NCBI GenBank assembly: GCA_963575745.1
Contig: CAUYUJ010000046.1
Coordinates: 62,001 to 119,114 of the forward strand
DNA from: Prorocentrum cordatum
Lineage: Eukaryota
DNA length: 57,114 nt
Direction of reading: 5' to 3'
The notes beneath the pieces were generated by a model. It was given only the letters and a program-made list of their open reading frames with translations, ran no database searches and was not told where the DNA came from. Both the position numbers and the translations under genes were made by a program. Positions 3,856-57,114 of the stretch are shown here, piece after piece (position 1 is the first letter of the stretch; each line of letters begins with the position of its first letter).

Positions 3856-4362
3856 CGGAGGTGAGGGGGTGAGAACGAAGTGGAACGGAGAGCCCCCCTA
3901 CCGGGAAATCGATTTCGGTTTCGTGTTCGTGCGTGCCGCGCGGGCGAGGCGAAGCTGCGTGGGCGGGCGAGAGAAAGTCTCCTGTGGCTGAGGCGCGGCC
4001 GGACCTTAATGATTCCCTTCCGGGCGGCCGGTGGCCCGCGGTGTCCCGCCGGTGTCCCGCTTGTGTCCCGTGTGGCTGAGGCGCGGCCGGACCAAATGAT
4101 TCCCTTCCGGGCGGCCGTGGCCCGCGGTGTCCCGCCGGTGTCCCACGGTGTCCCCCGGTGTCCCGCGGTGCCCCGCGGTGTCCCGCCGGTGTCCCGCAGT
4201 GTCCCGCGATGATGATGATGATGGTGATGATGAGAGGATGATGATGATGATGATGATGGTGATGGTGATGGTGATGATGATGATGATGCTGCTGATGATG
4301 ATGATGACGATGATGATGATGATTGTGATGCTGATGATGATGGTGATGATGATGATGATGAT

Positions 4363-4423
<61 letters not shown>

Positions 4424-5414
4424 CGATGATGATGATGATGACGATGATGATGATGCTGATGGTGTCCCGATGATGAGGATGATGATGATGATCATGATGA
4501 TTATGTTGATGATCATGATGATGACGATGATGGTGTCCCGATGATGATGAGTATGATGATGTTGTTGATGATGCTGATTATGATTGTGTCCCGATGATGA
4601 TGATGTTGATGATGATGAGGTTGATGATGATTATGGCGTCCCGATGATGACGATTATTCTGATGGTGATGATGATGTTGATGATGATGGCGTCCCGATGG
4701 TGATGATGATGATGATGGTGTTGATGCTGATGTTGGTAATGATGATAATGGTGCCCCGATGATGACGATGGTGATGCTGATGATGATGTTGATGATGCTG
4801 ATGCTGATGATGTCGATGATGAGGATGAGATGATGATGATGGGGTCCGGATGATGATGATGATAACGATGGTGATCAGGATGGTGTCCCGATGATGATGC
4901 TGCTGCTGATGATGATGATGACGATGACTGTGCCCCGATGCTGCTGATGATGATGTTGATGATGATGATTGTGATGATGGTGCTGATGATGATGACGATG
5001 GTGGTGTCCCGATGATGTTGATGCCCGTGATGATGACGATGTTGGTGTTGATGATGAGGACGGTGTCCCGATTATGATGATGTTGGTGATGATGATGTTG
5101 ATGATGATGTTGTTGTTGATGATGATGATGACGTTGATTGTGAGAGCGGTTGTGATATCGATAGTGAGATCGATAGTGAGACCGAATGTGATATCGATAG
5201 TGAGATCGATTGTGAGATCGTTTGTGAGATCGATAGTCAGATCAATTGTGAGATATACCGAGTGAGATCGATTGTGAGAACGATCGAAGGAGATCGATCG
5301 AGCGAGACCGATACTGAGATCGATAGTGAGATCGATAGTGAGACCGATCGAGTGAGACGTTGATTCCTCCCCCCCGAACCTTCTTATCTCCCGAAGGGTG
5401 GTCGTATAGGTATA
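3856..5414 (+). repeat. ~1.55-kb composite dispersed repeat, copy A (unique head + GTCCC repeats + (GAT)n + GTGAGATCGATA repeats + terminal hairpin)
   Basis: Its reverse complement is present at 13537-15045 with the same module order and highly similar unique ends (e.g. ccgggaaatcgatttcggtttcgtgttcgtgcgtgcc; cccgaagggtggtcgtataggtata). Confidence 0.85.
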
Positions 5415-8639: not shown

Positions 8640-9197
8640 CTTGCTCCTCCTGTAGTTCGTTGTCTTCCTCCTCCGCTGTCTCGTCAAAAGCCCCAGACCA
8701 CATACTGTTATCACAAGCTCCCCAAAAGCAACCAGGGGTGCCAAGACAGACCAAGGGGGCTCCGAAGAGGGCCCACGATAGGCTTCCAGGGCCCGGGGAA
8801 CCACAATTTGATGCGCAGTTCTCCTTTCGTCTCAGGAGCCCATGGAACACTCGCGAAAACTAAAACATACCCCAGACCCCAGACTGTTATCACCAGCTCC
8901 CCAGAAGAACCCACGAGACTCCTGGACGGCCCAAGAAGACCCCACCACGGGCCTACGACAAGGTTTCCTCTTGCTTTTCCTCCTCCTGCTCCTCTCTCTC
9001 TCCTGTAGTTCGCTGTCTTCCTTCTCCGCTGCCTTCTGAAGGGCCCCAGATCTGAGACTCATATCCAAGCTCCCCAAAGACACCAAGGCGCCGCCACAAG
9101 ACACACCTGGGGGGCCCCAGAGAGATCCCACGACAGGCTTCCAGGGTCTGGGGAACCACAATTTGATGCGCAGTCTCCCTCTCGTCTCAGGAGCCCA
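8640..9197. repeat. Diverged ~200-bp direct duplication, spacing ~353 bp
   Basis: ctgtagttcg...ggcttccaggg...ggggaaccacaatttgatgcgcagt...cgtctcaggagccca occurs at ~8650-8841 and ~9004-9197. Confidence 0.75.
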
Positions 9198-9536
9198 CCT
9201 CCTTTGTCTCCTCTTTCTCCCTCTCCTCGTCCTCCTTCTCCTCCCTTCGTCCACCTTTCTCCCCCGCCGCACTATCCTGGTCCTGTTCCTCCTCCTCTCC
9301 TCTCTCCCCCGTCACCGCCTTCTTATACTCTTCCTTCAGCGACCCCGGGAACTAAAATATGATGCTCACCTTTCCTTCAAGCCCTATCACCCCGTCCTCC
9401 ACATCCCCCCCTTCTCCTGCTTCCCCTTCCACCATGTTGCTTCATTTTCAGTACACTCCGACGCGTTGGCTCGAAAGGCGTAGATATCCCATTCTTGGGA
9501 TGGACACATGTACACCGTGATCATTTGCTCTGCGCC

Positions 9537-12500
9537 ATGGGCCCCAAGCGGGCAGCATGCTTTACGTGCTCTGTCTGCGAGGCCGACCTGCTGCGCGACT
9601 CGTTCACACCTACCCAGCTACACAAAGCCACGAAGACTTGCAAATAATGTGCCACACGGGCATCTTTCACGTGCTCGGCGTGCACGCCCGACCTTCCGCG
9701 CGACTCTTTCACACCCACTCAGCTGCACAAAGCCACAACGATTTGCAAAGCATGCGCCGCCCTCCAAAACAGACCTGCGGTGGCCCTGCCCTGCACTCGC
9801 TGTCGCGAGGAGCTCTCCCCCGAGGACTTCGCAGTTCAACGCCGACACAGAACCGAGAGAATTTGCTTCATTTTGTGTCCGTGCTCGATGCGGAGGAACA
9901 TTGCCGCTGGGCGATTTTGCTCCCAGATGGCACGCCCGCAACCAGAAGATATGCCGACGCTGCTGTCCACTAGGACGCCCGGAGGACGCCTTTTCCCGAA
10001 TCGATTTGGGTGCCATGACGCACACATGCACCCATTGCTCTGCAAAGCTGTTCCACTGCGAAGGCGATGGTTTCTGCTGCGGCGCTGGGAAGCATTACGT
10101 GGACTTCACAAAGTACCACAAGCCCCCTGCAGGCGCTGTCATGAAAACGTTCGGCACTACGTGGCTGTGCAAGGACGAACAGGGACGCCCAATACACGAC
10201 GCCATTTCCAATGCACCTCGATTGACGGGATTCTCAGCCATCAGCAGGCGCTGCAATAGTCTGTTCTCTTTCGCCGTGCACGAGATTCAAAGCACTACTT
10301 CAGAACGGGAGATGCGATTCAATAGCGAGCTGCGGCCTTCCAATATCCGAATCCCTGGCACGATGTACCGGCGGACTTGGAGCTGCGCTGACACGACGCC
10401 TCTACGCTACATTGTCGTCGACCCTCGGGGGCGCGTCACGAACGCCACTGCGCACAATGTGGACCTAAAGTTGCTTCGGCGACTGGAGACACTTATCCTT
10501 CCGCACAATGGCTATGCGAAAGAGCTTCGACGCCTGTCGGCCCCGTCAGTACGCGGCGCCGCCGTGGCGGTCGAGCTCCAGTGGGGCGAGGGCATCAACG
10601 AGCTCGCTGCGATTGCCCATGAAACACCCCGCGTGGACGCGTCGCCCTGGTCTGTCGTATTCCGAAGGAACTCGTGTCCCACGCCGCAATGCCTGAACCC
10701 GCTGAGCGCGCTCTACGAGCCCTTGAGTTACCCGCTCTGGTTTCCCCGCGGCGGCCGCGGATGGAGCGCCGACATGCTCGCGAACGCGGGGCAGCGCCTC
10801 ACGCAGATGTGGTGGCACCGTTAACACCTGCTACGAAGCCCACGCATGAATTTATGTGGGCGGCTCTTGAACGAGTGGCTCGTGGACATGCAATGCAGGA
10901 TGGAGGATGAGAGGCTCGGACTTCTTCGCAGAGCACAGGCTCGACGAACTTCCAAAAGAGAAGACATGTGCGAGGCCCTCGCCAATGACGCGCCCGTCCC
11001 TGGCACGAGTGCATATTTGTCTTCGAGCGTGCTCGGCCCCCCCCGCCACCCACGCAAGCTCCGAATGGACTCCCTGGAGCTTGCTCGGCGAAAAGGCCCG
11101 CCAACCTTCTTCAGCACGTTGACGTGCAACCCATACTGGCCCGAGATCACTGCCGCTCTGCATCCGGGCCAGGCAGCAGCAGACCGCCCAGACATCGTGG
11201 TCCGCGTATTCCGCGCTCGATTGGAGAAGGCGATGGCGCACCTCAAGCGTGAGTTCTGTGGAGACCGCAGGTACGTCATCAGGGTTATTGAATATCAGCG
11301 CAGAGGGCTGCCCCGTGCTCACATTGCCATAGCCCTGACGACGCCACCAACTGCGCCCGAAAGCCGTAGGCACCTTCGTCCCATGCGAACTTCCACCAGA
11401 CGGTCCTGTCCGCGCACTCGTCCTTCAACACATGATGCACTCGTGCAGCCATTCGTGCCACCCCGACGACCCATCTCAGGAGTGCATCACAGGGTGCCCG
11501 TGGCCTTTCCAGGGTATCCACATCACCGCCGCAGACATTGCGGCGGTGACTGCCCCAATTGCGCGTCTGGGACCCCATCTTACGGAAAACGATCTGCGTG
11601 CTGCAACCGGCTGATCGTGGAATACAACCCCACCATCCTCCTGCTGTGGGACGGACACGCCAATGTCAAATTCGCAGGGTCCGTCAACCTGTTCCAATAC
11701 CTTTACAAATCCCTGTTCAAAGGACCAGACCTTGTCAAGTACGAGCTCCAGGAGGACACTGGCAACAAAGACGAGATTAAAGAATGGCAGCGTGGCCGTT
11801 ATCTTTGCGCCACGGAATGCGCGTGGCGCATGTTTGGCTACACTACGTATGAACGCATCCCTCATGTGGTTTGTCTACGAGTACATTGCGAAGACGAAGA
11901 TTGGATCACCTATGCCGCCGGACAAGAAGAGGACGCCGTACAATCGTCTATTTCGTTTTTTTCAACGCTACTTCCACCGGCCCAAGTTCGAGCCGTACCT
12001 CTCCACGAAGTACTACGAATATTTCGAGCGCTTCATGGTGGCCAAATCTTGCCCGCAAGCCTTGCAGCACCACTTTCCCGACCTCTTTCCACGGGCTGCG
12101 GCGCCTTCGGCGACCCCCCCGCCGGGCGGGGCCCTGGCGCCCGTGCTCGACGCTGCCCCTCCAGGCCGGACCCACTTCGTCTACGAGAAGCAACGGGGCG
12201 AACATCCTATATGCAGGCTCGAAATGAAGTGCCCCAAACAGAGAGAGGTGTTCTACCTCAGACACATACTGTTGAACTGCCCAAAACCAAGCTTCGCCGA
12301 CTGCAAAACCCACGCCGGCCGGAGGTACCCTACTTATGAGCAAGCCCTTGTGGCGACCGGGTGTTTTGCGACAGCTGACGAACCCGCGCTGGTGCTCCAG
12401 GAGTTAGTCGAGCTTCGATACACTGCCGCTCAACTACGGTTCGCCTTCGTCGCGTTGCTCGAGCAGGACGCGTGCGCCGTGACGCTGTGCAACAAGTTCG

Positions 12501-13380
12501 AGAAGCATCTCCTCGATGACTTCCGCGATCGCGGGCTCACTCTAGATTCTGCCCGCACAGCTGCATGCGACGCTTTGCGCCTCTCGTGCCAGTCCATTGG
12601 CAAATCGTTCACGCTGGAAGAAGACAAACCTGCACGGTCTCAACCATCCCCAGCATCAGACACCTCTGCGGCGCCATTTCCCCCGCAAGAAGCGCAATCC
12701 CGCGCGAAGACCATCTACAAGACCCTTGCAAAGGATCCGAGTCAGACCGACGCCGTCAGAGCGATAATCGCGTCCATCCGCGCCGGGGCCGAGAAGTATT
12801 ATTTCGTCCACGGCCCCGCTGGCAGAAGCAAACCCACCGTCGCCAGTTACATCACTTACGCTGCTTTGGGGAGTGGACAGCGGGTCGTCAACATGGCCAC
12901 GACAAGAGTCGCGGCCCTGCAATTGCCCTTCGGCGCCACGGCGCACTCTGTCTGCAAGATTCCGGTGTCTGACGAGGACGTCCTCACTTGCTCTCTGCCG
13001 ATGAGCTCCCAAGGTGCCCGTACCCTCGCCGCGGCGTCTGTGCTCCAATGGGATGAGTGGCCAAATTCTAAACGACCTGCGTGGGAGAGCGTCCTCAAAC
13101 TATTGGACCATATTCAACAGCACCACACTACCATCTGGAAGAACAAGGCTTTCGTCTGCTATGGGGATTTCCGCCAGATTCCTCCTGTGGTGAAAGGAGG
13201 CACGCGGGACTCTATCGTCAACGACAGTGTTCGGAAATCTGCTACATGGGAGCTTTTCACTATTTACGCTTTGCAGGTGAACCACCGACAACACCGCGAC
13301 GTCGACTACGCTACCTGGGTTGCAAGCGTCGGCGACGGCACAGCCCCGTCGACACATCATCTCTCCGATGAGCCTGGGCG
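9537..13380 (+). pseudogene. Helitron Rep/helicase, inactivated and C-terminally truncated
   Basis: Start gccATGG at 9537 (MGPKR...). In-frame stops at 9645 and 10822; frameshifts near ~9870, ~11370, ~11550 and ~11960. HUH reads RAH, YxxxY reads YLYKS and Walker A is degenerate. The helicase breaks off after ...VGDGTAPSTHHLSDEPG and joins the non-coding 3' end. Confidence 0.88.
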
Positions 13381-13506
13381 CTACGGCGCACTCGCCTCGC
13401 CTCGCCTCCGCTCGCACATTTCCCACACACACACATCGCGCCCAGAAACATCGTAGGTGCAAGGATCAATATTCGAAGGCGAAGCGCAGCGAGCCTTAAC
13501 ATCTTG
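9537..13506 (+). mobile_element. Decayed Helitron (RepHel pseudogene plus 3' terminus)
   Basis: Helitron Zn motif CTHCSAKLFHCEGDGFCC; YEPLSYPLWFPRGGRGW; GRLLNEWLVDMQCRMEDERL; Rep motifs FFSTLTCN, EYQRRGLPRAH and YLYKSLFKG; Pif1-type helicase GPAGRSKPT, TAHSVCKIP, WDEW and GDFRQIPPVV, QVNHRQ. Ends in a hairpin + CTTG|T at 13503-13506. The 5' terminus was not identified. Confidence 0.93.
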
Positions 13507-13536: not shown

Positions 13537-15045
13537 TATACCTATACGACCACCCTTCGGGTGATAAGGAGGTTCGGGGGGGACGGAAACAACGTCTCAC
13601 CCGATCGGTCCCACTATCGATCTCACTATCGATCTCACTATCGGTCTCGCTCGATCGATCTCACTCGATCGATCTCACAATCGATATCACTCGATCTATT
13701 TCATTCGATCAATCTCACAGTCGATCTGACTACCGATCTCACAATCGATCTCACTATCGATCCCACCATCGATCTCACAATCGATCTCACATTCGGTTTC
13801 ACTACCGATCTCACTACCGACATCACAATCGATCTCACAATCAACGTCATCATCATCATCATCAACATCATCGCCACCAACGCAATCAACATCATCATCA
13901 TCATCGGGACACCATCATCATCGTCGCCTCATCACCATCAGCATCAACATCATCATCACCATCATCATCATCGGGACACCATCATCGTAATTATCAACAT
14001 CACCATCATCACCATCGGGACACCATCATAATCATCATCAGCAGAACACCACCACCATCATCATCTCATCATCATCATCATGAACAACATCAGTAACATC
14101 ATCGTCATCGGGACGCCACCATCCTCATCAGCAACATGATCATCATCAACATCATCATCATCATGGCAGCACCATCATCATCGTTACCAACATCATCACC
14201 ATCATCATCATCCGGACACCATCATCATCATCAACATCAGCATCATCATCAATATCATCATCGGGCCACCATCATCCAAACCATCATCATCACCTCATCA
14301 TCATCCTCATCATCAACATTATCATCGGGGCACCCTCATCGTCATCATCATCATTCTCATCAGCATCATCATCATCGGGACACCAGCATCATCACCATCA
14401 TCATCAGCATCATCATCCATATCATCATCACCATCATCATCATCATCGGGGCACCATCATCACCATCTCACCATCAGATCATCATCAGCATCATCAGGAT
14501 CATCAACATCATCATCATCGGGACACCATCATCACCATCATCAGCCACATCATCATCATCATCATCATCAACATCATCATCGTCATCGGGACACCATCAT
14601 CACCACCATCACCATCATCATCATCATCATCATTATCAACAGCATCGTTAACATCATCATCATCATCAGGACACATCATCATCACCACCATCACCATCAG
14701 CATCATCATCATCATTATCATCATCATCATCATCATCATCAGGACACCGACGGGACATCGGCGGGACACCTGCGGGACACCGCGCGGCACCGGACGCCAG
14801 AAGGGAGTCATTTGGTCCGGCCGCGCCTCAGCCACAGCGGGACACCGGCGGGACACCGCGCGGCACCGGTTGCCGGAAGGGAGTCATTTGGTCCGGCCGC
14901 GCCTCAGCCACAGGAGACTTTCTTCTCGCCCGCCCACGTAGCTTCGCTTCGCCCGCACGCACGGCACGCACGAACACGAAACCGAAATCGATTTCCCGGT
15001 AGGGGGGCTCTCCGTTCCACTTCGATCTCACCCCCATCACCTCCG
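13537..15045 (-). repeat. ~1.5-kb composite dispersed repeat, copy B (inverted relative to 3856-5414)
   Basis: Reverse complement of copy A; has a perfect hairpin caccc-ttc-gggtg at ~13551-13563; flanked by TA-rich DNA. Confidence 0.85.
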
Positions 15046-17685: not shown

Positions 17686-18684
17686 CTCTGCGGGCGGAGG
17701 AGGAGGAGGTTGGAAATCGCTGCTCCCCAATTGTATGAAGGAGGAGGAGGAGGAGGCGGAGGAGGAGGAGGAGGCGGAGGAGGAGGAGGAGGCGGAGGAG
17801 GAGGAGGAGGAGGATGAACAGGAGAGGGAGGCACGCGGCAACAGTGTGACCACGACCATGGCGAGGGAGCGAGGAGGGAGGGGCGGAGGAGGAGATCCAG
17901 GAGGGGAGGACGAGGAGCAGAAAGAGAGGCGCAGGCAAAAGGGGGAGCGAGTCAACACTGTGCCTCCCCCCTTTCCGACCATGCGCCCTCGACGTGGTGC
18001 TCCTTCACCACGACTGGCACCGGGCCCCCCACCCAAGCTCACCACCATGCGGGAAGAGTCCAAGCCCCCGCCCGCCCCCGCACGATCGCTACCGTTAACT
18101 GCCCGGAGGGGGATGGGCGGACCACGACACGCGCCAGAGGATTCACAAAAACGACCTCGTCGCGAACGGACGTAGCCGGGCACCGCGGCACCATTTCCAA
18201 GGTGCTCGGCGGCGCCCGCCCCGGTCCCCGCGCGGACCCCGCCTCCACGGCACATCCTCGAGGGTCACCCCCGGGGGCCCCCCAGACGCAGCAGGGCGCA
18301 TCAGAAGCACCGCTCGGGGGGCGTCGTCGCCGATGGGACCGGAAGCGGAGCGGAGAGATGCTCGTTCTTTTTCTTTCCAGGGCAGTGGTCGTTACCCGGG
18401 AGGGGGGGGGGTCGGAGGGTTCGGGCGGGACAGCAACACTGACAGCGGCCGCGGCGTGCACCCGCCAGGGTGCGTCTGCGCCAGCCACCGCAGATGAGTC
18501 TCCACCCGCTGTTGCGGAACCGCTGGCCCTTGTTGGCGTAGCAGAACTTCCTCCTCCTCCTCCTCCTCATCATCATCATCATCATCCTCTTCCGCCTCCT
18601 CCTCCGCCTCCTCCTCCTCCTCCGCCTCCTCCTCCTCCGCCTCCTCCTCCTCCTCCTCCTCGCTCCTCCTCCTCCTCCTCCTCT

Positions 18685-18887
18685 CGGTAGCAGCACGCGG
18701 GGGCGGCCCTTGCCCTCCCTCCTCCACCAGGGGGCAGCCCTGCGCGGCGGCGCCAGGGCACTGCAGGAGAAGCAAGCAGTTGGGGCGCCCCCGGCGTAGG
18801 GTCTGAAGCACTGGAAGCTGGCCGCCGACTGGCGGCATCGCTTGACTCTCAGGGGAGCCTTGCATCTGGAGCCAAAATGGCTACGGA
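18685..18887 (-). mobile_element. Short SL-headed element sharing the 5' leader of the LINE at 32740-40524
   Basis: Begins with the SL, followed by atgcaaggctcccctgagagtcaagcgatgccgccagtcggcggc (~35/46 identical to the LINE leader). Bounded by CCT/GGA microsatellites; 3' boundary approximate. Confidence 0.65.
18866..18887 (-). other. Dinoflagellate spliced-leader (DinoSL) relic
   Basis: Minus strand TCCGTAGCCATTTTGGCTCCAG, 21/22 match to DCCGTAGCCATTTTGGCTCAAG; followed by AT, not the GT of an SL-RNA intron. Confidence 0.92.
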
Positions 18888-19134
18888 GGAGGAGGAGGAG
18901 CGAGGAGGAGGAGGAGGAGGAGGAGGAGGAGGAGGAGGAGGAGACGGAGCGAGGAGGAGCGAGGAGGAGCGAGGAGGGAGGAGGAGACGGTGGAGGAGGA
19001 GGAGGAGGAGGAGGAGGAAGAGGAGGAAGAGGAGGAGGAAGAGGAGGAGCGGCGAAAAACCGCAGGGCCCGCCTCTCCCCGGGGGCCCGCTGCCTCACTA
19101 GGGGAACGAAACATGGCAGAAACACGAGAACTCG

Positions 19135-21143: not shown

Positions 21144-21243
21144 NNNNNNNNNNNNNNNNNNNNNNNNNNNNNNNNNNNNNNNNNNNNNNNNNNNNNNNNN
21201 NNNNNNNNNNNNNNNNNNNNNNNNNNNNNNNNNNNNNNNNNNN
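21144..21243. other. Assembly gap (100 N)
   Basis: Run of 100 n. Confidence 1.
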
Positions 21244-26256: not shown

Positions 26257-28530
<2,274 letters not shown>

Positions 28531-28959
28531 TACTAGGGCTGCTACGTGCTTGTTCCCGTAATCTTCTCTTCTCCCACCCCCCTCCCTCCTCTGTAATCTT
28601 ACCCTCCGCCGTCCTGCCCGTTGTTCCCTTCGTCCTTCTACCCCTCCGCCCCTCAACCTCCGCATCCACCATTATCGTTTCTCTCTCCTTTCCAATTTCG
28701 CCTCCCTCCCTCTTCCTTCCTCCGTGTTCCTCCTACCTCTCCCGTATCCTCCTCCTGAACCCCCCGCGACCTCCTCATCCTTCTTACCATCCTCCTCAGC
28801 ATTATCCTGTTCATCACCGCGTGTGGAAGAACAAAGGGTCCACCAGCACTACCATCACCATGCCCATGACGAATACTTGATATACTATCCCTCCCTCCCC
28901 GCCGCCCCTCCTCCTTCCTCGTAATCCTTGCTCTCCTTCTCCTCCTCCGCCGACCACCA

Positions 28960-32580: not shown

Positions 32581-32782
32581 CTCGCGAGGGGAAGACGGGA
32601 GTGGGGGAGCCCAGCGTGGGGCAGGGAGAGGAGGAAAAGGAGGAAAAAGAGAAAGGAATCGGAGGAAAAGGAGGCGTAGGAGGAGAAAGAGGAGGAGGAG
32701 GAGGAGGAGGAGGAGGAGGAGGAGGAGGAGGAGGAGGAGCCCACGCCTCAAGGAGGGATCCCCGTCCAGCCACATCGCTGCA

Positions 32783-34276
32783 TTACGCAGCACGGGGCAC
32801 GTCGCCCGCGGCCCACGCGGGGCCATTCCTCATATCCTCCTCCGCAGAGACGATCTGGTTGTTGAAGTCGTCGATGTGAAAGCTAGCGTCAATGAGATCC
32901 GAGCCAGCGACGGCACCGCCGCCATGAAGGCGCGGCCCCTCGACAGGAACGGGGCCATCAGGAAGAAGGGCACCGACTTCACTCACGGAGGGAGCTACTC
33001 CAGCGCCTGCATTAACCATAGCGGAAATCTCCGCATGTCGAACTTATGGGTCATCTTGATGATCATGAGATACAGCAGATGCGAAAGCCTCCGGCTGGGC
33101 CGTCGCGAAGACGTTGTCCTCCTCTCCTTCCACTTCCAAGAAAAGCGCCAAGATGTCCTCCGCGACCTCCATAGCCGCCTCTGTGCCATCGTCTGCCGAT
33201 GATGCAGCCGCCGAAGACACGATGGTGGCAGCGGCCTCAACATCGAGAAGACCGTCATCGCCATGAACTGCACGTCCTGTGACTTGGACATCTGCTTCGC
33301 CAACACCACCAGGTAGTTCGTGTCCAGGATGTGGTTCTTCGTGTAGCTGGGCCGATCCCGTCGGTATGTATGGCAAGGGCCCCCGAGCACGATTGGTGAA
33401 TATGTTGACGCGCGGGCGGGTGGCGTTCGCAACATGTGTCCCCACCTGAGAAAGATGAGCAGGGTTCGTCCCAGTTGGGTTGCGACCCTCGCAGTCCGAT
33501 CCCGTCATCTCGTGACCATGACCACGGCCTTCATCACCTTCCAGCACACTTCCAGGGTTCTGGAGCATCCAGGTAACAAGGCTCCGCTGCTCGTCCGAGA
33601 GGTCGAAGATCTCGTTCAGGTAGAGCAACGCTAGCGCCAGCTGACGGTCTGCGAGCGGATCTGTAGCTTCCGCACCAGACCGAGCAACGTGCAATGCATC
33701 ACGCACCGCAGCACTCCAATGCTGAAGACCCACCAGGGTATCTGCGGTTGCTGTGGCGGAACCAACCCCAGTAGCAGGTGCCAGTGCCCCCGACGCGAGA
33801 GCACCCGAATCACGGCCTGTCAACGTTCGATCCGCAAGTCTGTGCGCCGCCGCCGACTCGAAGATGCTGACATCGGAGCAGCTGGATGAAGTTGTCTCAT
33901 GGTGACCAGCACTGGGGAGCGGAGCAACGGGTGGCACCCAGGAAGAGGAAGCAGATGGGTCTGACGCCCCACTTGTATTCGCCCTCGAGCGTCTCTCGGC
34001 AGCCAGTACTTGAGCTTCGTGCATCTCGTCTGTCAATGTCAATCCAAAAAGACGAGCATCTTCATCAGCCGTCATCGCGGTGTCGTGCTGGGGGTAGCCA
34101 ACGGTGTCGACACTGCGATTGTCCTCATCGGGCAGGTACGGGTCATCACTGATGTCACAGTCACCCTCGACATGCGCAAGGTGCGGCAAGAGGTACGAAG
34201 GCGGGTTGAGCGACAACGGCGGCCCAGATGGAAAGACGTGGCGCAAACGAAGGAGGTCAGCCCTTTTCCGCATCAC
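32783..34276 (-). pseudogene. LINE 3' ORF / ORF2 extension (~500 aa, acidic, unknown function)
   Basis: ORFs 33044-34276 and 32783-33019 are in the same frame, separated by a single TAA at 33044-33046. Overlaps the end of ORF2 by ~20 nt (likely a frameshift). Confidence 0.55.
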
Positions 34277-37200
34277 TCATACGCGACATGTCAGCAGCAC
34301 AGTCCCTTTGCCGAAGATGCGCAAGGGCACGTTGTCGTAAGGTGCGTACGCGCCAATAGTCATTGACGGGCCACGGTTGACTAAGATGAAGGCAGGCCTG
34401 TTCCCTGGGGATAGCCGACGAGTGCAATCCACTCATGCAGAGCTCGATCGCCAGATACCATCGCTCCGGCGCGCATGTCGCTGCGTCCCCAGCACCACGC
34501 GATGGAGAGCTGAACAGAGACCGAAAGTCATTATAGCGTAATACATCTGCAACGTAAGGTACGCACCACTCCATCCATTGCTGGAAATCAGATCCAGAGA
34601 AAGACACATATAGCGAGGGCACCCATTGCTCTGACCAGCGCGAAAAAGCATCCAGCAGCATCAGTCGCCTCCGATGTCCTTGATCGCCTTGCTCCCCCAG
34701 AGGAACATGCCGCGGCTGCGGGTCCTGAGCAAACAGCGAGTCCTGCACGTGGTGGTCACCATAGAGCGGTGGGAGCCACGAAGCAATCAAGCGTGGAGAG
34801 CTGAGCGTCACCGATTCCACAGCCGCTGTTTCTGCCGATCCAGGGTGCACAGCAAAGTAATCCTGATGACGAGGCCAGCCACGTACGTGCATGCGTTCGT
34901 CCGCACATTGTCTCAATGCAAACAGCCGCGATGCATCTGCCCCGCCCCATGTAGACGCTAGGTGATGGGGGAGTCGAGCCCTCCCCAATGCCGAGCTGTG
35001 CCACGCGGCATGACACATGCTGGAGCCAAGAGTGCGTCTTTCCAGCAACGTCCCCACCGGGGTAGCAAACAACCCACAGAAGGCCCAGTATTGAAACACG
35101 CGACTGATAAACTCTGTGCCCCAGTTCATCCAGTCGTCGAAATCGCTGCTGGCGCTGGGCTCCAAGAAGAGTGAGGGAACCCAGTTCCGCGCCCAAGACT
35201 CCAGCAGCACTGCGAAGCGTGCCAACCTCCGAAGCATGATGGGGCCAGCCCCAGCTGGCGGTATGGCAGCGAACCTGGCCTCGCAAATGGAATCCGGAAA
35301 ATGTACGCGACGCGGAAGAGTGTCGTGTAGGAAGCGGCGTCCGATTGGCAACATACCGAGAAGATCATCCCACCATTCATGCACGACCGATGGTGATTCG
35401 AGCATACAGACAGGCAGAGGGTCAGGTGGTACAGGAGGGCGGCGCGCGACCCTGACCCGCCCTGCCGCAGGCGAGGCAAGCGCGCGGGTCCGCACCGCGC
35501 CTCTCCATGTTGTGAGCAACTGATCAGGATGCACACGGTAGAGGTGCCGAAGGTTATGATAAGCAGTAGTAGCCAGATGCGTGTTCATCAGGTCCTCATC
35601 GTAGCAACCGCGAAGACCCCATCGATCAAGAACGTGTGCAGGCAAGTATCGCCGGCCTCCCGATTTGACCATTGCAAGACCCCATGCCAGCCCACGACAT
35701 TCCCAGTAGTGTCCCATATCGTCACGCTCGCCAAAACACCCGAACAGGCACGGTTTGACCCCATCTGCAGACGTAATGCGAGACGAGGTTAACCAACCGC
35801 CACAAATCGCACGGATGATGCTGGTGGCCCAAGCGACTGGGTATGTCGTCAACTTCTTGCGAAGGGTTTCCCAATCCAGGGCTTGAATCTCGCTGCCGAG
35901 CCGCGGGAACCATTTAGTCCATCGCTTGATAAAGGTGGTGGCCAAGGGTGCTGTGCATGAGGACTGCAAGGGGAGGTGTGCACTAATGTACTCAGCTGTA
36001 AAGACCCGATACGCAATCCGCTGAAGATGCTTTTTGACTGAGCTATCGTTCGCCAAGGCGAGACGAGCAGCCGCAGCACCTGTTGATGCCGAGAACTTGC
36101 AGGCTCTCTCCAGAAACTCGGCGAAGGACAGTAATTGCCAAAAGGAGGGCGAGAGACCACCACACAGATCTGCCACGACGCGCTCATTGATCCACCTCGA
36201 TGAGGCTCTTTTCAAGAGGGCTAGATACGTAGCATGTTCAGGGTGTGTGACAATCCCAGACCGAATCAGCGCAGACTTCGCTGACATGGGCAGACTGCGG
36301 AGACGTGGTCCTCCCCGAGCTCCGGGCGCCACCAGGGAACCTCATCAGCTTCACGAGCACATGGATGTCCTGACTCTTCAACATCCTGGGGGGCGGCAGG
36401 AATTGTGCCACAGAACCCACGATTGGCAGGCATCTCGTCGTGTAGTTGATGCCATTCAGGCTTGCTGGGGCCGCAGAGGCGGCAAGGGAGCTGACACGGG
36501 CGCGGTATTTATCCCGTGGCGCCGACCATGATTGAAGGAGCGTAGCCGCTGGACCCATCCACATCCCCAAATTCAGGAGAGTAGCCTCGACTTTGAAGGA
36601 AGACCAGTGCGCCAGCTGATGGCGCAGGAAGTCGCGCACACAATGCCGCAGCTCGGAAGAGAATGTGCCAGCCAGTGGAACGATCACGCACGTGGCGGGC
36701 TTGAGCTTTAGGCTGGCCAGCTTGGCTGCCACCGCCATCGCACGCGATAAGAACTTCAGATCGATCATCTCAAACAGTACTCCCCCGATATCATCAGCAC
36801 AAGCCCGAAAGACACCGCGCTGGCGGAGTTCGATCCCCTGCCAGATGTCCTCCAAGATCGGAGAGGTAGCTGCCGCGAACAAGCTCCCAGCTAATGCACA
36901 GCCTTGAATGATCCCACACCAGATGCGGAAGAGAACCTTAGTGACCCCTGAAGCCCTGCCCAAAGCAGTGACAACCGCATGGAGAGAGCGCATCGCCTGT
37001 AATTGAGCTGACGGCAGGTGAAGGTGCTCAAGAAGGATGAAAAGGTAATTCTGGCTGAGGCTGGGAAACGCTTGTCCAAAGTCGAGAGCGACTAGCAGCG
37101 GCATCCGTTCCAGCGGGTTGGGCATCATCGACGCGGCTCTGGCAGCCACGTCGAGCTCCAGAATGTTTGAGGTAAATTGGCGGCCCGAGATAAAGCCTCG

Positions 37201-39090
37201 CTGTGCTGACGATGTGGAGTTCTTCACGATCGGGGAAAAGGCGGCGTTGAAGGTGGCCGAGATAATCTTCATGTCCGTGTTGCGCAGCCCGAGCGTGCGC
37301 ACCGAGTCAGGGGATCTGTTGACCCCTCTGCTGTCATCATCACCAGCTTGACATCCTTCAGGGAGGACTGCTTGAAGAGTGTCGCCGCACTGAGCGAATA
37401 ACCGTTGCCCATCCATCCTCCATACACAGGATTGCCAGAGGACCTTCGCGCCCGTCTCATGTGCTGCCCAGGCGGCGCATGGCAGCCCATCAACGCCAGG
37501 GGAGGAGCGCGACGGCGCAAGCTTGACAAGCACTCGCTGTAGCATCTCAAGAGACGGTGGGGAAAGCCCATCGAACGAGCAAGGTTGCACGAACCGTTCA
37601 GCATAGCGTCTAGTATGGGCAGGATAATCATGGGGAGCAGCAGAAACTGGTGCCAAATATCGCGTGAGTGCGTCCAGCTTCTCGAATGGGTCGGCATAGG
37701 CGGCGCCGTCGGCCTCGATGGAGCGCAATGCTAGCTTTTTTCGAGAAAGGAACCCAGAGCCGGGCCTTCCGCTGCACCGCAGCGATCATACCAGCCGAGG
37801 GGCGTCGTCGACCTTCCCCGTGTACTGCATCATGTTGTAATCGCTCGAACTCGAGCTCTGCAGCACGACGTTGAGTGGCGTCCACCCACGCCTGAAAGGT
37901 AGGGTAGTCCGCAATGATGACCTGGGTATTCTGTACCTGCAGACACGCCCGAGCAATTTCAGAAGCATGGCATAACTTCTGCGCAAGCGAAGTGTTTTGC
38001 CGCCAGACGCATCGAGCAGCTTGTCGAACATATATCAACTGGGCTTCAAGGGAGTCGCTCTCGTTGACCAAGATATTCTGCATTGTATCGAAAGCTGCAG
38101 CTTGAAGCAAGTCTTTATACCTCAGTAATTGCCACGGTGGGGACATGCCCAAGGAGAACTGTCCATCATTATCGAGAAGCACGCCTAGTCGCCGCCGAAA
38201 CTCTGGCCGTTTGTAGATATGAGCAGGGACTGGTTTGCGATAGCAACCATCAAGATCACGATGTCGAATGTGCACCCAAATAGCCACGTGATCCGATAGC
38301 TCTTTGTCGTGCATCTCTTCGGGCGTGGATACTACCGACACGGAGTGCTGGAGTTGGCATGACATCCAATTAGGTTCGGATAGCCAGAGCCAGTCGATCT
38401 GTGACACAGCCTTCGTGTCATGGCAGTAGTGTGTCGGGTCCTCCGACGCTATCTCCAACATCTGATCAAAAACCGAAGACCAAAGTCTCACATGCGAGCG
38501 AGCGTCATTCGTGACTTTGCGCAACTTTGCTGCTGTCGGTTGCGCCAAGTGGAGCGCGTCGCGCGCTGCTAAGTTGAGGTCGCCACATGCAACAACTAGC
38601 CTTGAGCTGCGATCGAGAGATGCCCAGTGCATGTCCGCCTTAATAGCTCTAATCACCTTCTGCGCGTCAACCACCGAGAGACCATGATTGTGAATATTGG
38701 ACGAATCTCTGCGCGCCCACCCACCAAACTAAATCGCATAACTCTGCCTCTGACGAATGGAGTAGACGATGAAGCCCACGATGACGTCTTCGAGAGTGGC
38801 ACAATCGTAGCAACTCCGCCACGACCACGGCCAGAAACATCATCCCCATCTTTGGCATATTCGAAGGAGCCAAAGACTGTAGCATCGGGCGCGATTCTGC
38901 GCATGTAGAGTTCCAGCCCCCCCCCCCCCCCCCCCCCCTCCCCCCCCCCGGGTCTGGTGAGCCTCTTGTATGGCAACGATGGAGGAGGAGATGCCAATCA
39001 GGTCCAGGTAGGAGGCCTTACTCATCGCTCTAGCACCACGGAACTGCAGCACCGCCCGAGCGTTCCACGACACAAACGTACGCTCCTGAC
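34257..39090 (-). pseudogene. LINE ORF2: AP endonuclease + reverse transcriptase + CCHC finger + duplicated C-terminal domain (frameshifted)
   Basis: APE motifs SWNARA, IQEAH, GRGGVA, CGDLN, PTHY...SQIDW, LSDH. RT motifs SPGVDG, QRGFISGR, ALDFGQAFPSL, GIIQGCALAG, ACADDIG. Zn motif CLFGC...HYWEC. Split over several frames; poly-C run at 38917-38948. Confidence 0.93.
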
Positions 39091-39169
39091 AGCGCGGCGC
39101 CAGGCCGCCCCGCACCTTGTGATAGAAGATGTCGTCGCACTTGCTAAAGAGACCACTCTGGCTCCGCGT

Positions 39170-40326
39170 TGGGCTTGAGGATGTGACCAATCGAGTTGTT
39201 GATACTAGCACGCGTCCACCCCCGTGAGGTGAGCGCGGCATCATGAAAGTAGCAGAGCGTGGGATCGCGGCCAGGCTGAGGTTCAAGTCGCAGCACGGGG
39301 TTACAGTTCTCAGATAGCCATCCATTCTGTCGATCAAAAAAAGAATTTGCACTGCGGGTGCATCCCCCGAAGCACGCTCGTAACCTTCTTGCCAGCAATT
39401 TCAAGCTTGATCTGGTACGGCGACTTATCAGGCCCAATGTGTAGTTGCGTTGAGCCACCTGAGGCAGCTGGCACAGGGAATCGCACCCATTGGCCCTTGC
39501 CGAGGCGGAGCGCAGCCAAGGCCTGTGAGACGCGCTTGCAGGCGAGGCCGACGGCACCTGTGAACTGAATGACAAAAACTCGGTCCTGTTCATCACCTTC
39601 AATATTAAAGCCTTCGGTCTTCGCGTCTTGGAGCCATGTCTCCACTGAGGATACCACATCCTTCTTACATACCAACGTGGGCGCAACGACCTTGAGGATA
39701 GTGCCGTCAACGTTGCGCTGGAAGCCAATGCTGGCGGGCTTGGGGGGCTGCGGTACTTTGTTGGCCATGACGAGCTCCTTACGCATTTCCTCCAGCGAGC
39801 ACTGCATGTCGGCAAACTGCCTGGCGAGGGTCTCGGTGCGGGCGTCCACATCGGCGATCTTGGAGGCCACGGTGTCCAGTTGACGCTGGATGCGCTGCTC
39901 GAGATCATTGAGTTCCGAACGCAGTTAAGTCTCCATCTCGTTCTTGCAATTCCCAGGAACAGCCTTGATCGCATTCTCGAGTTTGTGGACGGCAGCCATA
40001 ACTGGGTCCACAGCCTTGCCTGCAGCGTCGGCCGCTGAGGCGGCCGCAATAGATGCCAGGTCATCCTTGAAGGACTTGAACTCCTGCGGGAGGCGCTTGC
40101 CGAGCTGCTCAGCGATGAGACAGTTGATATGGGCGCTCCAGTCATCGTCGGCCATGTCGTATGCATCATCTTTGGCGTCGGAGACATGACGGCTCGACCT
40201 CGAACGATCATCATCAGCCCGACTACCAGCAGGGACAGAATCATCAGCAGCACCCCGCACAGCTGCGGGACGCCCCGCTGCAAGTGCCTTCTTCTTGCGC
40301 TTGGGAGCCGCACCATTCGGGGGCAT
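39170..40326 (-). pseudogene. LINE ORF1 (basic N-terminus + coiled coil + globular domain), disrupted
   Basis: MPPNGAAPKRKKK start; helical segments (VHKLENAIK, IADVDARTETLARQFADMQCSLEEMRKEL); position upstream of APE; stop at 39925 and frameshift near 39340. Confidence 0.75.
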
Positions 40327-40502
40327 GCGCGGGCCGTACGCGCCGAAACTTGACGCGATCTGGCCGACAGGAACGGGAAAAGCCTCCGTTTACCCGCCGA
40401 CCCAAGCGCAGGGACGGTGGACAGGAGAAGATGCCAAACCTCAAGAGGTCTTGCCAGCCGCGGACTAGCGGTATCCGCTTGGTTTCCAGGGGAAACCTGC
40501 AT

Positions 40503-40524
40503 CTTAAGCCAAAATGGCTACGGA
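40503..40524 (-). other. Dinoflagellate spliced-leader (DinoSL) relic at the LINE 5' end
   Basis: Minus strand TCCGTAGCCATTTTGGCTTAAG, 21/22 match; followed by ATGCAGG. Confidence 0.93.
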
Positions 40525-41135
40525 AGGAGGAGGAGGAGGAGGAGGAGGAGGAGGACAGGGGGACGAGGAGGAAGAAGAGGAGGACAGGGGGACGAGGAGG
40601 AGGAGGAGGAGGAGGAGGAGGAGGATACGGACGACGGGGACAAAGGAAGAGGAAAGTGCAGGTTTCTTCCTCCTCCTCCTCATCCTTCTCCTTTTTCTCC
40701 TCCTCCTCCTTTTCCTGTTCCTGTTCCTCCTCCTCCTCCTCGTCCTCATCATCCTCCTCCTCGTCTCCTCCTCCGTCTCCTCCTCCTCCTCCTCGTCCTC
40801 CTCCTCCTCCTCCTCCTCCTCCTCCTCTCCTCTTCCTCCTTCTCCTCCTCCTCCTCCTCCCTCCATCCTCCTCCTCCTTTTCCTCCCTCTCCTCCCCCTC
40901 ATCCTCCTCCTCCTCCTCCTTCTCCTCCTGCTCCCCCTCCTCCTCCTCCTCCTCCTCCTCCTCCTCCTTGCCCTCCTTCTCCTCCTCCCCCTCCCCGCCG
41001 TCCTCCTCCTCCTCCTCCTCCTCCTCCTCCTCCTCCTCCTCCTCCTCCTCTTCGAGGGTCCCCTCTCTTCCCCCTCCCCCGTTCCCTACCCTCCTGTGCA
41101 CCTCCCTCAGAGGGACCTTCCCAGGAGGCGGGTTC

Positions 41136-55738: not shown

Positions 55739-55739
<1 letters not shown>

Positions 55740-55779
<40 letters not shown>

Positions 55780-55839
55780 GCTACTACTACTGCTACTACT
55801 ACTGCTACTCGACTATACTACTACTACTTACTACTACTA

Positions 55840-55883
<44 letters not shown>

Positions 55884-56531
55884 TAATACTACTAATACTA
55901 CTATTACTAATATACTAACTAACACTACTACTATACTAGACTACGTACAACGACTACGACATACGACTACTACTACTACTTACTAATACTACTCTACTAC
56001 TACTACTACTACTACTACGACACTACGGACTACTAACTACTAACTTACTACTACTACTACTACTACTACTACGACTACTACGGCCTACTACGACTACTAT
56101 AATACTACTACACTACTTACTACTACTACTACATACTACGACTACTACTACTACTAATTTATTACTACTACTACTGCTGCTACTCTATAATACACTGTAT
56201 CACTGGTCTACTACTACAAACAACTACTACTACTACTACTACTAATGACTAATACTACTACCTACTACTACCTATTACTACTACTACTACGACTACTTAC
56301 GGCTACTATACGAATACTACGGGTACTACACCACTATTACTACCACAACTACACTTACTTACTACTACTATACTACTACTACTACTACTACTACTATACT
56401 ACTACTATTACTACTACTCTACTTTCAACGACTTACGACTACTACTACTATACTACTACTACGACTACATACTTACTAATACCTACTGCTACTACTACTT
56501 ACTACTCCTACTCTTACCCCTACTCCTACTC

Positions 56532-56583
<52 letters not shown>

Positions 56584-56670
56584 GATCAGTACGACTACTA
56601 TTACAACAACTACCATCACTAGTACTACAACAACAACAACTACAACTACAACTACTACTACTACTACTAG

Positions 56671-56723
<53 letters not shown>

Positions 56724-57114
56724 TTACTAGTACTACTACGAATATTACGACTACTACTACTACTACTCCTACTACTACGACTACTGCGACTACGACTACG
56801 ACTACGACTACGACTACTACTACTACTACTACTACGACTACTACTACTTCTTCGTCTACTACTACTTTACTGGTGCGACGACGACCCCGACGACGACTAC
56901 GAACATGATTGTAACTGGGACTGCGACTACGACCTTGACGACGACTACAAGTACGACGACCACTACGACTACGACTACGACTACGGCCATTACGAGGCCT
57001 ACTACAACTACGACGACCACCACCAACACCGCTGCGACCACTATTACTACTATTACTACTACTACTACTACTATTACTACTACTACTACTACTACTTCTA
57101 CTACTACTACTACT
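55740..57114. repeat. (TAC)n microsatellite to the window end
   Basis: Directly visible; source of the poly-Y/T/L ORFs. Confidence 0.95.

Follow-up and report, generated by a model that had tools for sequence, protein, structure and literature searches.

A LINE of the dinoflagellate Prorocentrum cordatum that begins with the spliced leader and lies between (TCC)n tracts

A stretch of 57,114 nucleotides of Prorocentrum cordatum DNA (assembly GCA_963575745.1, contig CAUYUJ010000046.1, positions 62,001 to 119,114 of the forward strand), referred to here as the window and numbered from its first letter, carries on its minus strand, from 40524 to ~32740, a 7.8-kb long interspersed nuclear element (LINE) with an apurinic-like endonuclease (APE) and a reverse transcriptase (RT). 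The first bases of this LINE are a copy of the dinoflagellate spliced leader (DinoSL, hereafter also SL) that matches in 21 of 22 positions, with T for C at position 19. The SL is followed by a 177-nt 5′ untranslated region (UTR), a first open reading frame (ORF1) and then, in order, the APE, the RT, a CCHC motif, an extension of ~880 residues, a stop and a 3′ UTR of ~300 nt (Table 1). Scanning the window with a 21-mer core of the leader and at most three mismatches revealed two sites, both on the minus strand, while none of 100 shuffled sequences contained any match. The letters after the SL of the LINE read ATG (40502-40500), such that A-T stands where the SL RNA has its G-T donor; SL-RNA introns open with GT or GC (PMC6616646). 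At both sites a 5′ genomic DinoSL with 21 of 22 matches ends at the exon boundary and is followed by AT instead of a donor, the configuration of a DinoSL relict. The coincidence of the 5′ boundary with a leader copy followed by AT, as stated in the original prediction, is thereby confirmed by scan and coordinates.

On the strand of the LINE, the upstream flank is pure (TCC)n at 40525-40555, within a period-3 array that extends to 40625, and at the other end the element passes at 32740/32741 straight into 51 nt of pure (TCC)n (32689-32739). The two tracts have the same polarity, and no A-run or poly(A) is found in the sequence at the 32740 junction, so that this part of the original prediction also holds. 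A target-site duplication is not definable within a microsatellite.

The second site of the leader scan lies 21.6 kb from the LINE on the same strand, and there, too, AT follows the SL. It coincides with the single match obtained when the whole LINE was compared with the rest of the window by blastn, which aligns LINE bases 1-68 with 18887-18821 (80.9% identity, E 2e-10). After the SL, 34 of the 45 columns of the conserved leader are identical; the leader alignment scores 33, compared to 14.7 ± 2.3 for shuffled sequences, of which 0 of 2000 reached 33. The homology begins at SL base 1 with none upstream, and in both heads of the window the repeated unit thus opens with the SL. With the (TCC)n/SL/leader junction recurring at a second locus, the SL head is a feature of the LINE family and not a single accident. 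Beyond ~46 nt after its SL, the second head has no similarity to the DNA of the LINE, to its proteins or to eight related proteins (blastn/tblastn); unrelated sequence follows the leader, up to (GGA)n on that strand at ~18683. Nor does the 3′ end of the LINE resemble the sequence that leads up to the following (TCC)n on the far side of this orphan head (701 of 1000 shuffles were as good). Copies made by target-primed reverse transcription lose 5′ rather than 3′ sequence when truncated, and an orphan 5′ head is therefore not a normal abortive product of this process.

Several further properties of the two heads were inspected. Their predicted RNA folds are no better than those of shuffled sequences (z -0.75 and -0.71), and a compensatory hairpin suggested by eye is absent from the predicted fold of the second head. 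Derivation of the leader as a duplicate of the start of ORF1 is not supported (776 and 1092 of 2000 shuffles score equally). At gathering thresholds, Rfam yielded no match anywhere in the window and, at E up to 10, none for the LINE head; for the second head, one chance match to a long non-coding RNA was the sole result (E 1.6). Near both heads (18549-18683 and 40668-41050), the polarity of the microsatellite flips within ~40-200 nt, (GGA)n being followed by (TCC)n on one strand, which may record inversions or opposed insertions in the tracts.

The coding part of the element is that of a LINE with ORF1 and ORF2. The residues encoded by 39334-39924 in ORF1 are 30-31% identical to the database proteins P0001, P0002 and P0005 (E ~1e-26). 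An N-terminal apurinic-like endonuclease precedes the RT in ORF2, as is evident from the motifs FVSWNAR, VAIQEAH, GGVATIV, GDLNLA and SDHVAI, which occur in this order, and from 23-35% identity to the matching region of the relatives P0001-P0005; the Pfam match is weak (Exo_endo_phos, E 0.011, below the curated cutoff). The RT is of the non-LTR type and matches RVT_1 of Pfam above the curated cutoff (E 9e-10). Eight proteins from two protein searches are 31-44% identical to the RT, six of them named Prorocentrum cordatum, the species that also provides the closest annotated proteins of the LINE; among PDB entries, L1 ORF2p alone was matched, weakly (E 7e-4 to 2e-3). A search for the clade of the RT gave generic RVT_1 clusters only, and the eight protein matches carry no family names. 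The region of the CCHC motif aligns with C-terminal parts of P0001, P0002 and P0005. The C-terminal extension of ORF2 matches no Pfam family, and its last 410 residues have no counterpart in P0001-P0005; within it (34257-35400, minus strand), a tryptophan-rich module of ~175 residues is duplicated, the two modules being 30% identical (E 4e-16). Overall, the order ORF1, APE, RT and C-terminal part is colinear with the five database proteins P0001-P0005 (23-43% identity).

This copy is structurally full-length but dead. The term “full-length”, which the original prediction had used, is apt insofar as ORF1, APE, RT, CCHC motif and extension are all there and colinear with the relatives; the copy itself is broken by a poly-G insertion, by one stop in frame and by five or more changes of frame, and the conserved motifs along ORF2 sit in frames 2, 0, 2, 0 and 1. 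The poly-G run (38917-38949) is either a copy-specific insertion or an assembly problem. The locus is best explained as an old copy, inactivated yet complete in structure, that belongs to an APE/RT LINE family with multiple copies in a GC-rich dinoflagellate.

Other copies were sought in DNA sequencing runs, of which the low-coverage run X1 contains part of the LINE (share 0.24), while X2 and X3 of the same study gave no contig on it. The LINE is covered by 368 contigs of X1: 15 with at least 99% identity, 24 with 95-99%, 106 with 90-95% and 223 with less than 90%. The element is thus multi-copy, in support of the original prediction, and from the number of contigs and the large share below 90% identity the family is abundant and old. 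All three X1 contigs over position 39927 carry another base in place of the ORF1 stop, and single contigs have one base less than the LINE at 37736 and at 34261; this stop and these two frame shifts look copy-specific. One low-depth X1 contig joins 40346 to 40457, with 32 letters that include a degenerate stretch resembling the SL core replacing 110 nt of the 5′ UTR; it may represent a copy in which another leader relict lies internally, a weak indication with a shorter side of 20 nt.

The role of the (TCC)n tracts can be judged against the composition of the window, in which 82 pure TCC/GGA runs of at least four units occur (53 and 29 in the two orientations; 3.6% of bases). A pure 12-nt TCC-phase repeat lies directly upstream in 1,103 of 113,982 combinations of position and orientation (0.97%), yet both SL heads are preceded by pure (TCC)n; as far as these junctions go, the two 5′ junctions and the one 3′ junction all lie in (TCC)n of one polarity. 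The flanks are accordingly far richer in TCC than the background, as the original prediction anticipated. That prediction had also considered generation of the tracts by the LINE, which is unlikely: no other piece of it was found beside any TCC/GGA run in the window (blastn and tblastn of the LINE, tblastn of the eight relatives). Because these many other runs lack a LINE fragment, targeting is favoured over generation, and (TCC)n is more likely the target than the product of the LINE. It is improbable that the flanks reflect no choice of target at all, being either regional background or, downstream, a (TCC)n tail added by the RT, with the upstream tract left as a tail by a previous insertion. 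In its favour are the existence of LINEs that end in short repeats, the abundance of TCC/GGA runs in the window and the fact that just one 3′ junction is known; against this stand the low chance of an upstream repeat per site, when both heads have one, the repeat of equal polarity at the 3′ end, and the bare TCC/GGA runs elsewhere in the window, of which the LINE is not the general source. Insertion into related repeats, namely (TC)n, (TTC)n, (TTCC)n and (TTTC)n, has been described for LINEs of the Tx1 clade (PMC4494074).

The origin of the SL at the 5′ end is most readily discussed in view of what is reported for dinoflagellate genes. DinoSL is added to mRNAs, and its genomic relicts mark retrocopies (PMC7245778, PMC12014239, PMC5585692); the acceptor for trans-splicing is an AG, otherwise without consensus, and in one gene of A. 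carterae an SL-like genomic sequence occurs at the exact splice site (PMC2488372). In Symbiodinium, genes with DinoSL relicts are enriched for “RNA-dependent DNA replication” (PMC5585692). Trans-splicing of the RNA of the LINE is the origin that we tentatively favour for its SL head, at a confidence that stops somewhat short of calling it probable. The leader may be acquired and propagated in the following manner: The LINE, in which no promoter of its own is visible, would be transcribed within a longer host transcript, onto which the host machinery would trans-splice the SL at an AG acceptor just 5′ of the conserved leader. The SL-capped RNA could then be translated, and the ORF2 protein would nick a (TCC)n·(GGA)n tract on its purine strand and prime reverse transcription there, possibly aided by pairing of the target with a short UCC-type 3′ end of the RNA, in which case poly(A) would not be needed. 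When reverse transcription reaches the extreme 5′ end, the SL would be copied into DNA, and its first three bases (TCC) may provide microhomology with the target for 5′ joining. The daughter copy would have AAG before the leader and a pyrimidine tract upstream, which may enable re-splicing at the same AG without stacking. Such a LINE would be a natural source of the enzyme for SL-tagged retrogenes.

Trans-splicing has to be weighed against a different derivation of the first ~68-93 nt, which may be a discrete, heritable head with an SL-RNA gene or an SL-like gene as its source, acquired for instance when the RT switched its template to this small RNA, and in which the donor would have been destroyed by a change from GT to AT. 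This is possible, if less likely; the head would travel with the LINE and with other retrocopies, may serve as internal promoter or as ready-made leader, and trans-splicing of the LINE would not be needed. Several observations fit this derivation and weigh against the favoured one. The ~46 nt after the SL are common to a locus that otherwise has no similarity to the LINE, i.e., the leader is conserved at 18.8 kb in an unrelated context. The 5′-most bin of the LINE has a summed X1 depth of 122, compared to 3-59 in the other 29 bins, and four of the six best-supported loose ends of X1, at 40355, 40432, 40442 and 40457, belong to contigs that leave the LINE downstream; those at 40432 (five contigs), 40442 (one) and 40457 (two) are 68-93 nt from the 5′ end, and 40355 extends the range to 170. 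The sequences joined there agree poorly with each other (0.69). A discrete head accounts for this depth and the clustering more readily than a simple 5′ UTR does, although they are suggestive only, as they draw on six of 152 loose ends and contig depth is not copy number. In one X1 contig, read along the strand of the LINE, the 3′ part of the SL is canonical and is separated from the same leader by G-T and a U-rich stretch; G-T directly after CTCAAG resembles the donor of an SL RNA. The length of the head suits that of SL RNAs, which is 50-60 nt in several species and 89 nt on average in F. kawagutii (PMC6616646). Re-splicing of relicts usually proceeds through the AG at SL positions 6-7 and yields stacked relicts (PMC12014239, PMC5585692), of which neither head has any; pure recycling does not predict such single SLs. 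Furthermore, the run search listed no RNA run with the LINE; we infer its transcription, its trans-splicing and the acceptor. The targeting step, in turn, draws on one 3′ and two 5′ junctions in a window that is itself rich in TCC/GGA runs, and within a microsatellite no empty site is definable. Precedents for a discrete head are found in Tx1 families with heads derived from U1 or U2, the 3′ truncation of which varies by up to 22 nt (PMC4494074), in the Pr77 module, which is common to LINEs, degenerate elements and SINE-like ones, yields transcripts that stay unspliced and is bound by TBP and SNAP50, factors of the SL gene (PMC8190864), and in contigs of giant-virus bins that encode the full DinoSL before ORFs.

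On the other side, AT instead of GT or GC follows the exon in both heads of the window, and the SL stops precisely at the exon end, which is what trans-splicing predicts; the clustered break points could also mark the border between conserved and fast-evolving parts of diverged LINE subfamilies, and the two heads neither fold better than shuffled sequences nor yield a meaningful Rfam match. The original prediction is thus supported in part, and its claim that the LINE propagates from SL-bearing RNA holds as far as these data reach: the SL is the first base in both heads and its 3′ part precedes the leader in an X1 contig, while the attribution to trans-splicing competes with the head of ~68-93 nt. 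A more specific form of the latter idea, in which the ~68 nt of SL and leader are a portable, “self-leadering” module, i.e., a captured SL-RNA-like gene with disabled donor that would act as internal promoter and translation-competent 5′ end, appears rather unlikely from our analysis. Hardly any weight remains for coincidence or artefact, that is, a LINE that landed by the pre-existing SL relict of a host retrogene, or an assembly chimera. SL relicts are common in dinoflagellate genomes, the window has a gap of 100 N (21144-21243) and the poly-G in the LINE is suspicious; however, the gap is 11 kb from the LINE, a contig of an independent run joins the 3′ part of the SL to the same leader, and the second locus, with the same junction at 81% identity, is an independent, diverged copy that has no unique flanks in common with the first and hence no sign of segmental duplication. 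Coincidence is largely refuted by this second head.

The two readings bear on how a LINE without promoter may remain expressed in a genome of long transcribed arrays, namely with a 5′ end set by host trans-splicing or with the leader as part of a portable head. A leader-headed LINE implies that LINE RT in these cells copies SL-capped RNA to its extreme 5′ end. Dinoflagellate genomes are full of SL-relict retrogenes, and a LINE with leader-headed full-length copies is a testable candidate for the engine that makes them. By its association with (TCC)n, the LINE would give the microsatellite-specific APE LINEs a new repeat among their targets and a protist among their hosts. A self-leadering module, if true, would be the dinoflagellate counterpart of the trypanosomatid Pr77; the LINE, together with non-autonomous passengers like the 18.8-kb orphan head, would be expressed autonomously where conventional promoters are almost lacking, and giant-virus-like contigs with DinoSL ~49 nt before more than 100 ORFs would represent a second, independent use of the same trick.

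Table 1. Features of the LINE, its flanks and the second head in the window, and example loci from the IMG/VR scan (numbered in their own sequences)
Feature	Position	Strand	Details
Upstream flank, presumed target microsatellite	40525..40625	-	imperfect (TCC)n, pure at 40525-40555 and 40594-40625; Tandem Repeats Finder array and list of pure runs
DinoSL copy, first base of LINE	40503..40524	-	21/22; blastn match to second locus begins at LINE base 1
Conserved leader after SL, begins ATG	40457..40502	-	common with second head 18821-18865; SL and leader form the ~68-nt head
Rest of 5′ UTR	40327..40456	-	absent from second head
ORF1, 330 codons and TGA	39334..40326	-	basic N-terminus, central heptad-like stretch (by eye), C-terminal domain; in-frame TAA 39925-39927
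APE-type endonuclease, FVSWNAR to SDH motif	38279..39076	-	motifs and relatives; two frame changes
Poly-G run in APE, between QEAH and GGVA motifs	38917..38949	-	X1 reads cut at 38906-38955
Reverse transcriptase core	36787..37311	-	catalytic CADD 36781-36801; in ORF piece 36238-37785
CCHC zinc-knuckle-like motif, C-x3-C-x8-H-x3-C	35697..35750	-	3′ of RT; read from translation
ORF2 C-terminal extension	33044..35696	-	stop 33044-33046; frame change near 34261
3′ UTR, poly(A) absent	32740..33043	-	X1 contig depth 8.9-10.8
Downstream flank	32661..32739	-	(TCC)n on LINE strand, 51 nt pure at 32689-32739
Second, orphan head	18821..19049	-	(TCC)n 18888-19049; SL 21/22 18866-18887; homologous leader 18821-18865
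IMG/VR DinoSL example locus L029 (series L020 onward)	12484..12504		core scan
IMG/VR DinoSL example locus L038 (series L020 onward)	9001..9021		core scan
IMG/VR DinoSL example locus L042 (series L020 onward)	9001..9121		core scan

A location of the LINE in sense orientation within a host intron, another part of the original prediction, is hypothetical: beyond the LINE, the 38 other ORFs of the window gave Pfam matches to a Helitron only. The Helitron (9484-13453, plus strand) matches Helitron_like_N (E 4e-32) in one ORF and PIF1 helicase (E 8e-35) in the neighbouring one, with frame breaks, and is situated between long inverted arrays rich in (GAT)n/(ATC)n (4208-5348 and 13604-14741), the arms of which are 82% complementary at 5074-5265 and 13713-13904; (GAT)n/(TCA)n arrays of ~0.9 kb each occupy 4208-5131 and 13847-14741. 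Further trinucleotide arrays are (TAC)n over 2.3 kb at 26257-28535 and (CTA)n over at least 1.4 kb at 55739-57114, which continues past the end of the window. The 100-N gap mentioned above is a scaffold gap.

Searches in metagenomic and viral sequences did not extend the LINE family. A metagenome scan with the 3′ part of the SL followed by ATGCA gave 19 loci, none of the family; 16 of these lack the complete context of the SL and resemble bacterial or chance matches, and in three (L006, L007, L010) a real SL precedes unrelated sequence. The IMG/VR scan with the RT protein of the LINE returned no locus, and tblastn of the ORF pieces against 118 SL-carrying IMG/VR loci no match. A scan of IMG/VR for the DinoSL core itself found 119 loci, mostly in contigs of giant-virus metagenome bins with ~20% G+C, representing 136 distinct contexts. 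All inspected contexts have the canonical CTCAAG end; A stands before the core in 129 of the 136, and over the 60 nt upstream, in which a motif recurs, A+T amounts to 87%. GT comes after the SL in three contexts, and in 110 an ORF of 80 or more residues starts at the first ATG, at a median distance of 48-49 nt downstream. Pfam matches were obtained for 12 of 34 SL-led ORFs (DUF4116, RING, CCCH, DEAD helicase, GT41, ABC), with 22 lacking any. This looks like viruses that encode the host spliced leader before many of their own genes; no report of virus-encoded spliced leaders was found among titles and beginnings of abstracts in the literature search.

A DinoSL-headed LINE is likewise not reported in the searched excerpts of the dinoflagellate literature (including PMC3229502, PMC3942190, PMC12014239, PMC7245778, PMC8045281, PMC10666404, PMC5585692 and PMC6050394); what comes nearest is the enrichment of RT-related genes among those with DinoSL relicts in Symbiodinium. 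SL relicts, microsatellite-specific APE LINEs and small-RNA heads are each known; as far as searched, their combination is new.

Five known systems share features with the LINE. DinoSL-relict retrogenes have been described as recycled cDNAs (Slamovits and Keeling 2008, as cited in the papers named next). As in the LINE, the genomic SL marks the 5′ end of an RNA-derived unit, ends at the exon end and lacks the donor (PMC7245778, PMC5585692, PMC12014239); in contrast, what is tagged here is a retrotransposon with ORF1, APE and RT where theirs is a host gene, its SL is a single, complete copy whereas theirs are truncated or stacked, and the junction lies in a microsatellite. The enzyme behind dinoflagellate retroposition has been called unknown, with Ty1/copia favoured (PMC5585692). 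The microsatellite-specific Tx1 LINEs, such as Kibi in (TC)n, Koshi in (TTC)n and the crocodilian Tx1 elements in (TTCC)n/(TTTC)n, resemble the LINE in the APE type, the repeat on both sides and the absence of poly(A) (PMC4494074); here, the unit is TCC and the host a dinoflagellate, the putative specificity derives from two 5′ junctions and one 3′ junction, and a Tx1 affiliation of the LINE is conjectural. Tx1 LINEs and SINEU elements with heads from U1 or U2 small nuclear RNA are similar to the LINE in that the first tens of bases form a short head, which is also present on non-autonomous relatives and varies by ~20 nt in its 3′ limit (PMC4494074); the ~68-nt head of the LINE is common to one orphan locus, and its X1 break points are clustered (six of 152 loose ends). 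It carries the SL exon, however, whereas an intron part of the SL RNA in it is hypothetical, and neither window copy has the donor dinucleotide.

Two further systems come from hosts with spliced leaders. Spliced-leader-specific LINEs, namely CRE, SLACS and CZAR of trypanosomatids and NeSL-1 of nematodes, are like the LINE joined to spliced-leader sequence, but have a restriction-like endonuclease and interrupt SL exons within SL-RNA gene arrays. For NeSL, “spliced leader exons” are given as targets (PMC4640811). Unlike these elements, the LINE has an APE, starts with the whole SL and is flanked by (TCC)n instead of SL-gene repeats; neither an SL-gene repeat nor 5S was found nearby by the SL scan of the window and Rfam. 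The second of these systems is Pr77, the 77-nt hallmark of trypanosomatid LINEs (PMC8190864): in a polycistronic host with SL trans-splicing, a 5′ module of ~70-80 nt is carried by a LINE and by unrelated or degenerate elements (L1Tc/ingi/NARTc/RIME/DIRE/SIDER; PMC8190864, PMC1874656). Pr77 differs in that it is not SL sequence and gives unspliced transcripts, whereas the dinoflagellate head is led by the SL itself and its role as a promoter is putative.

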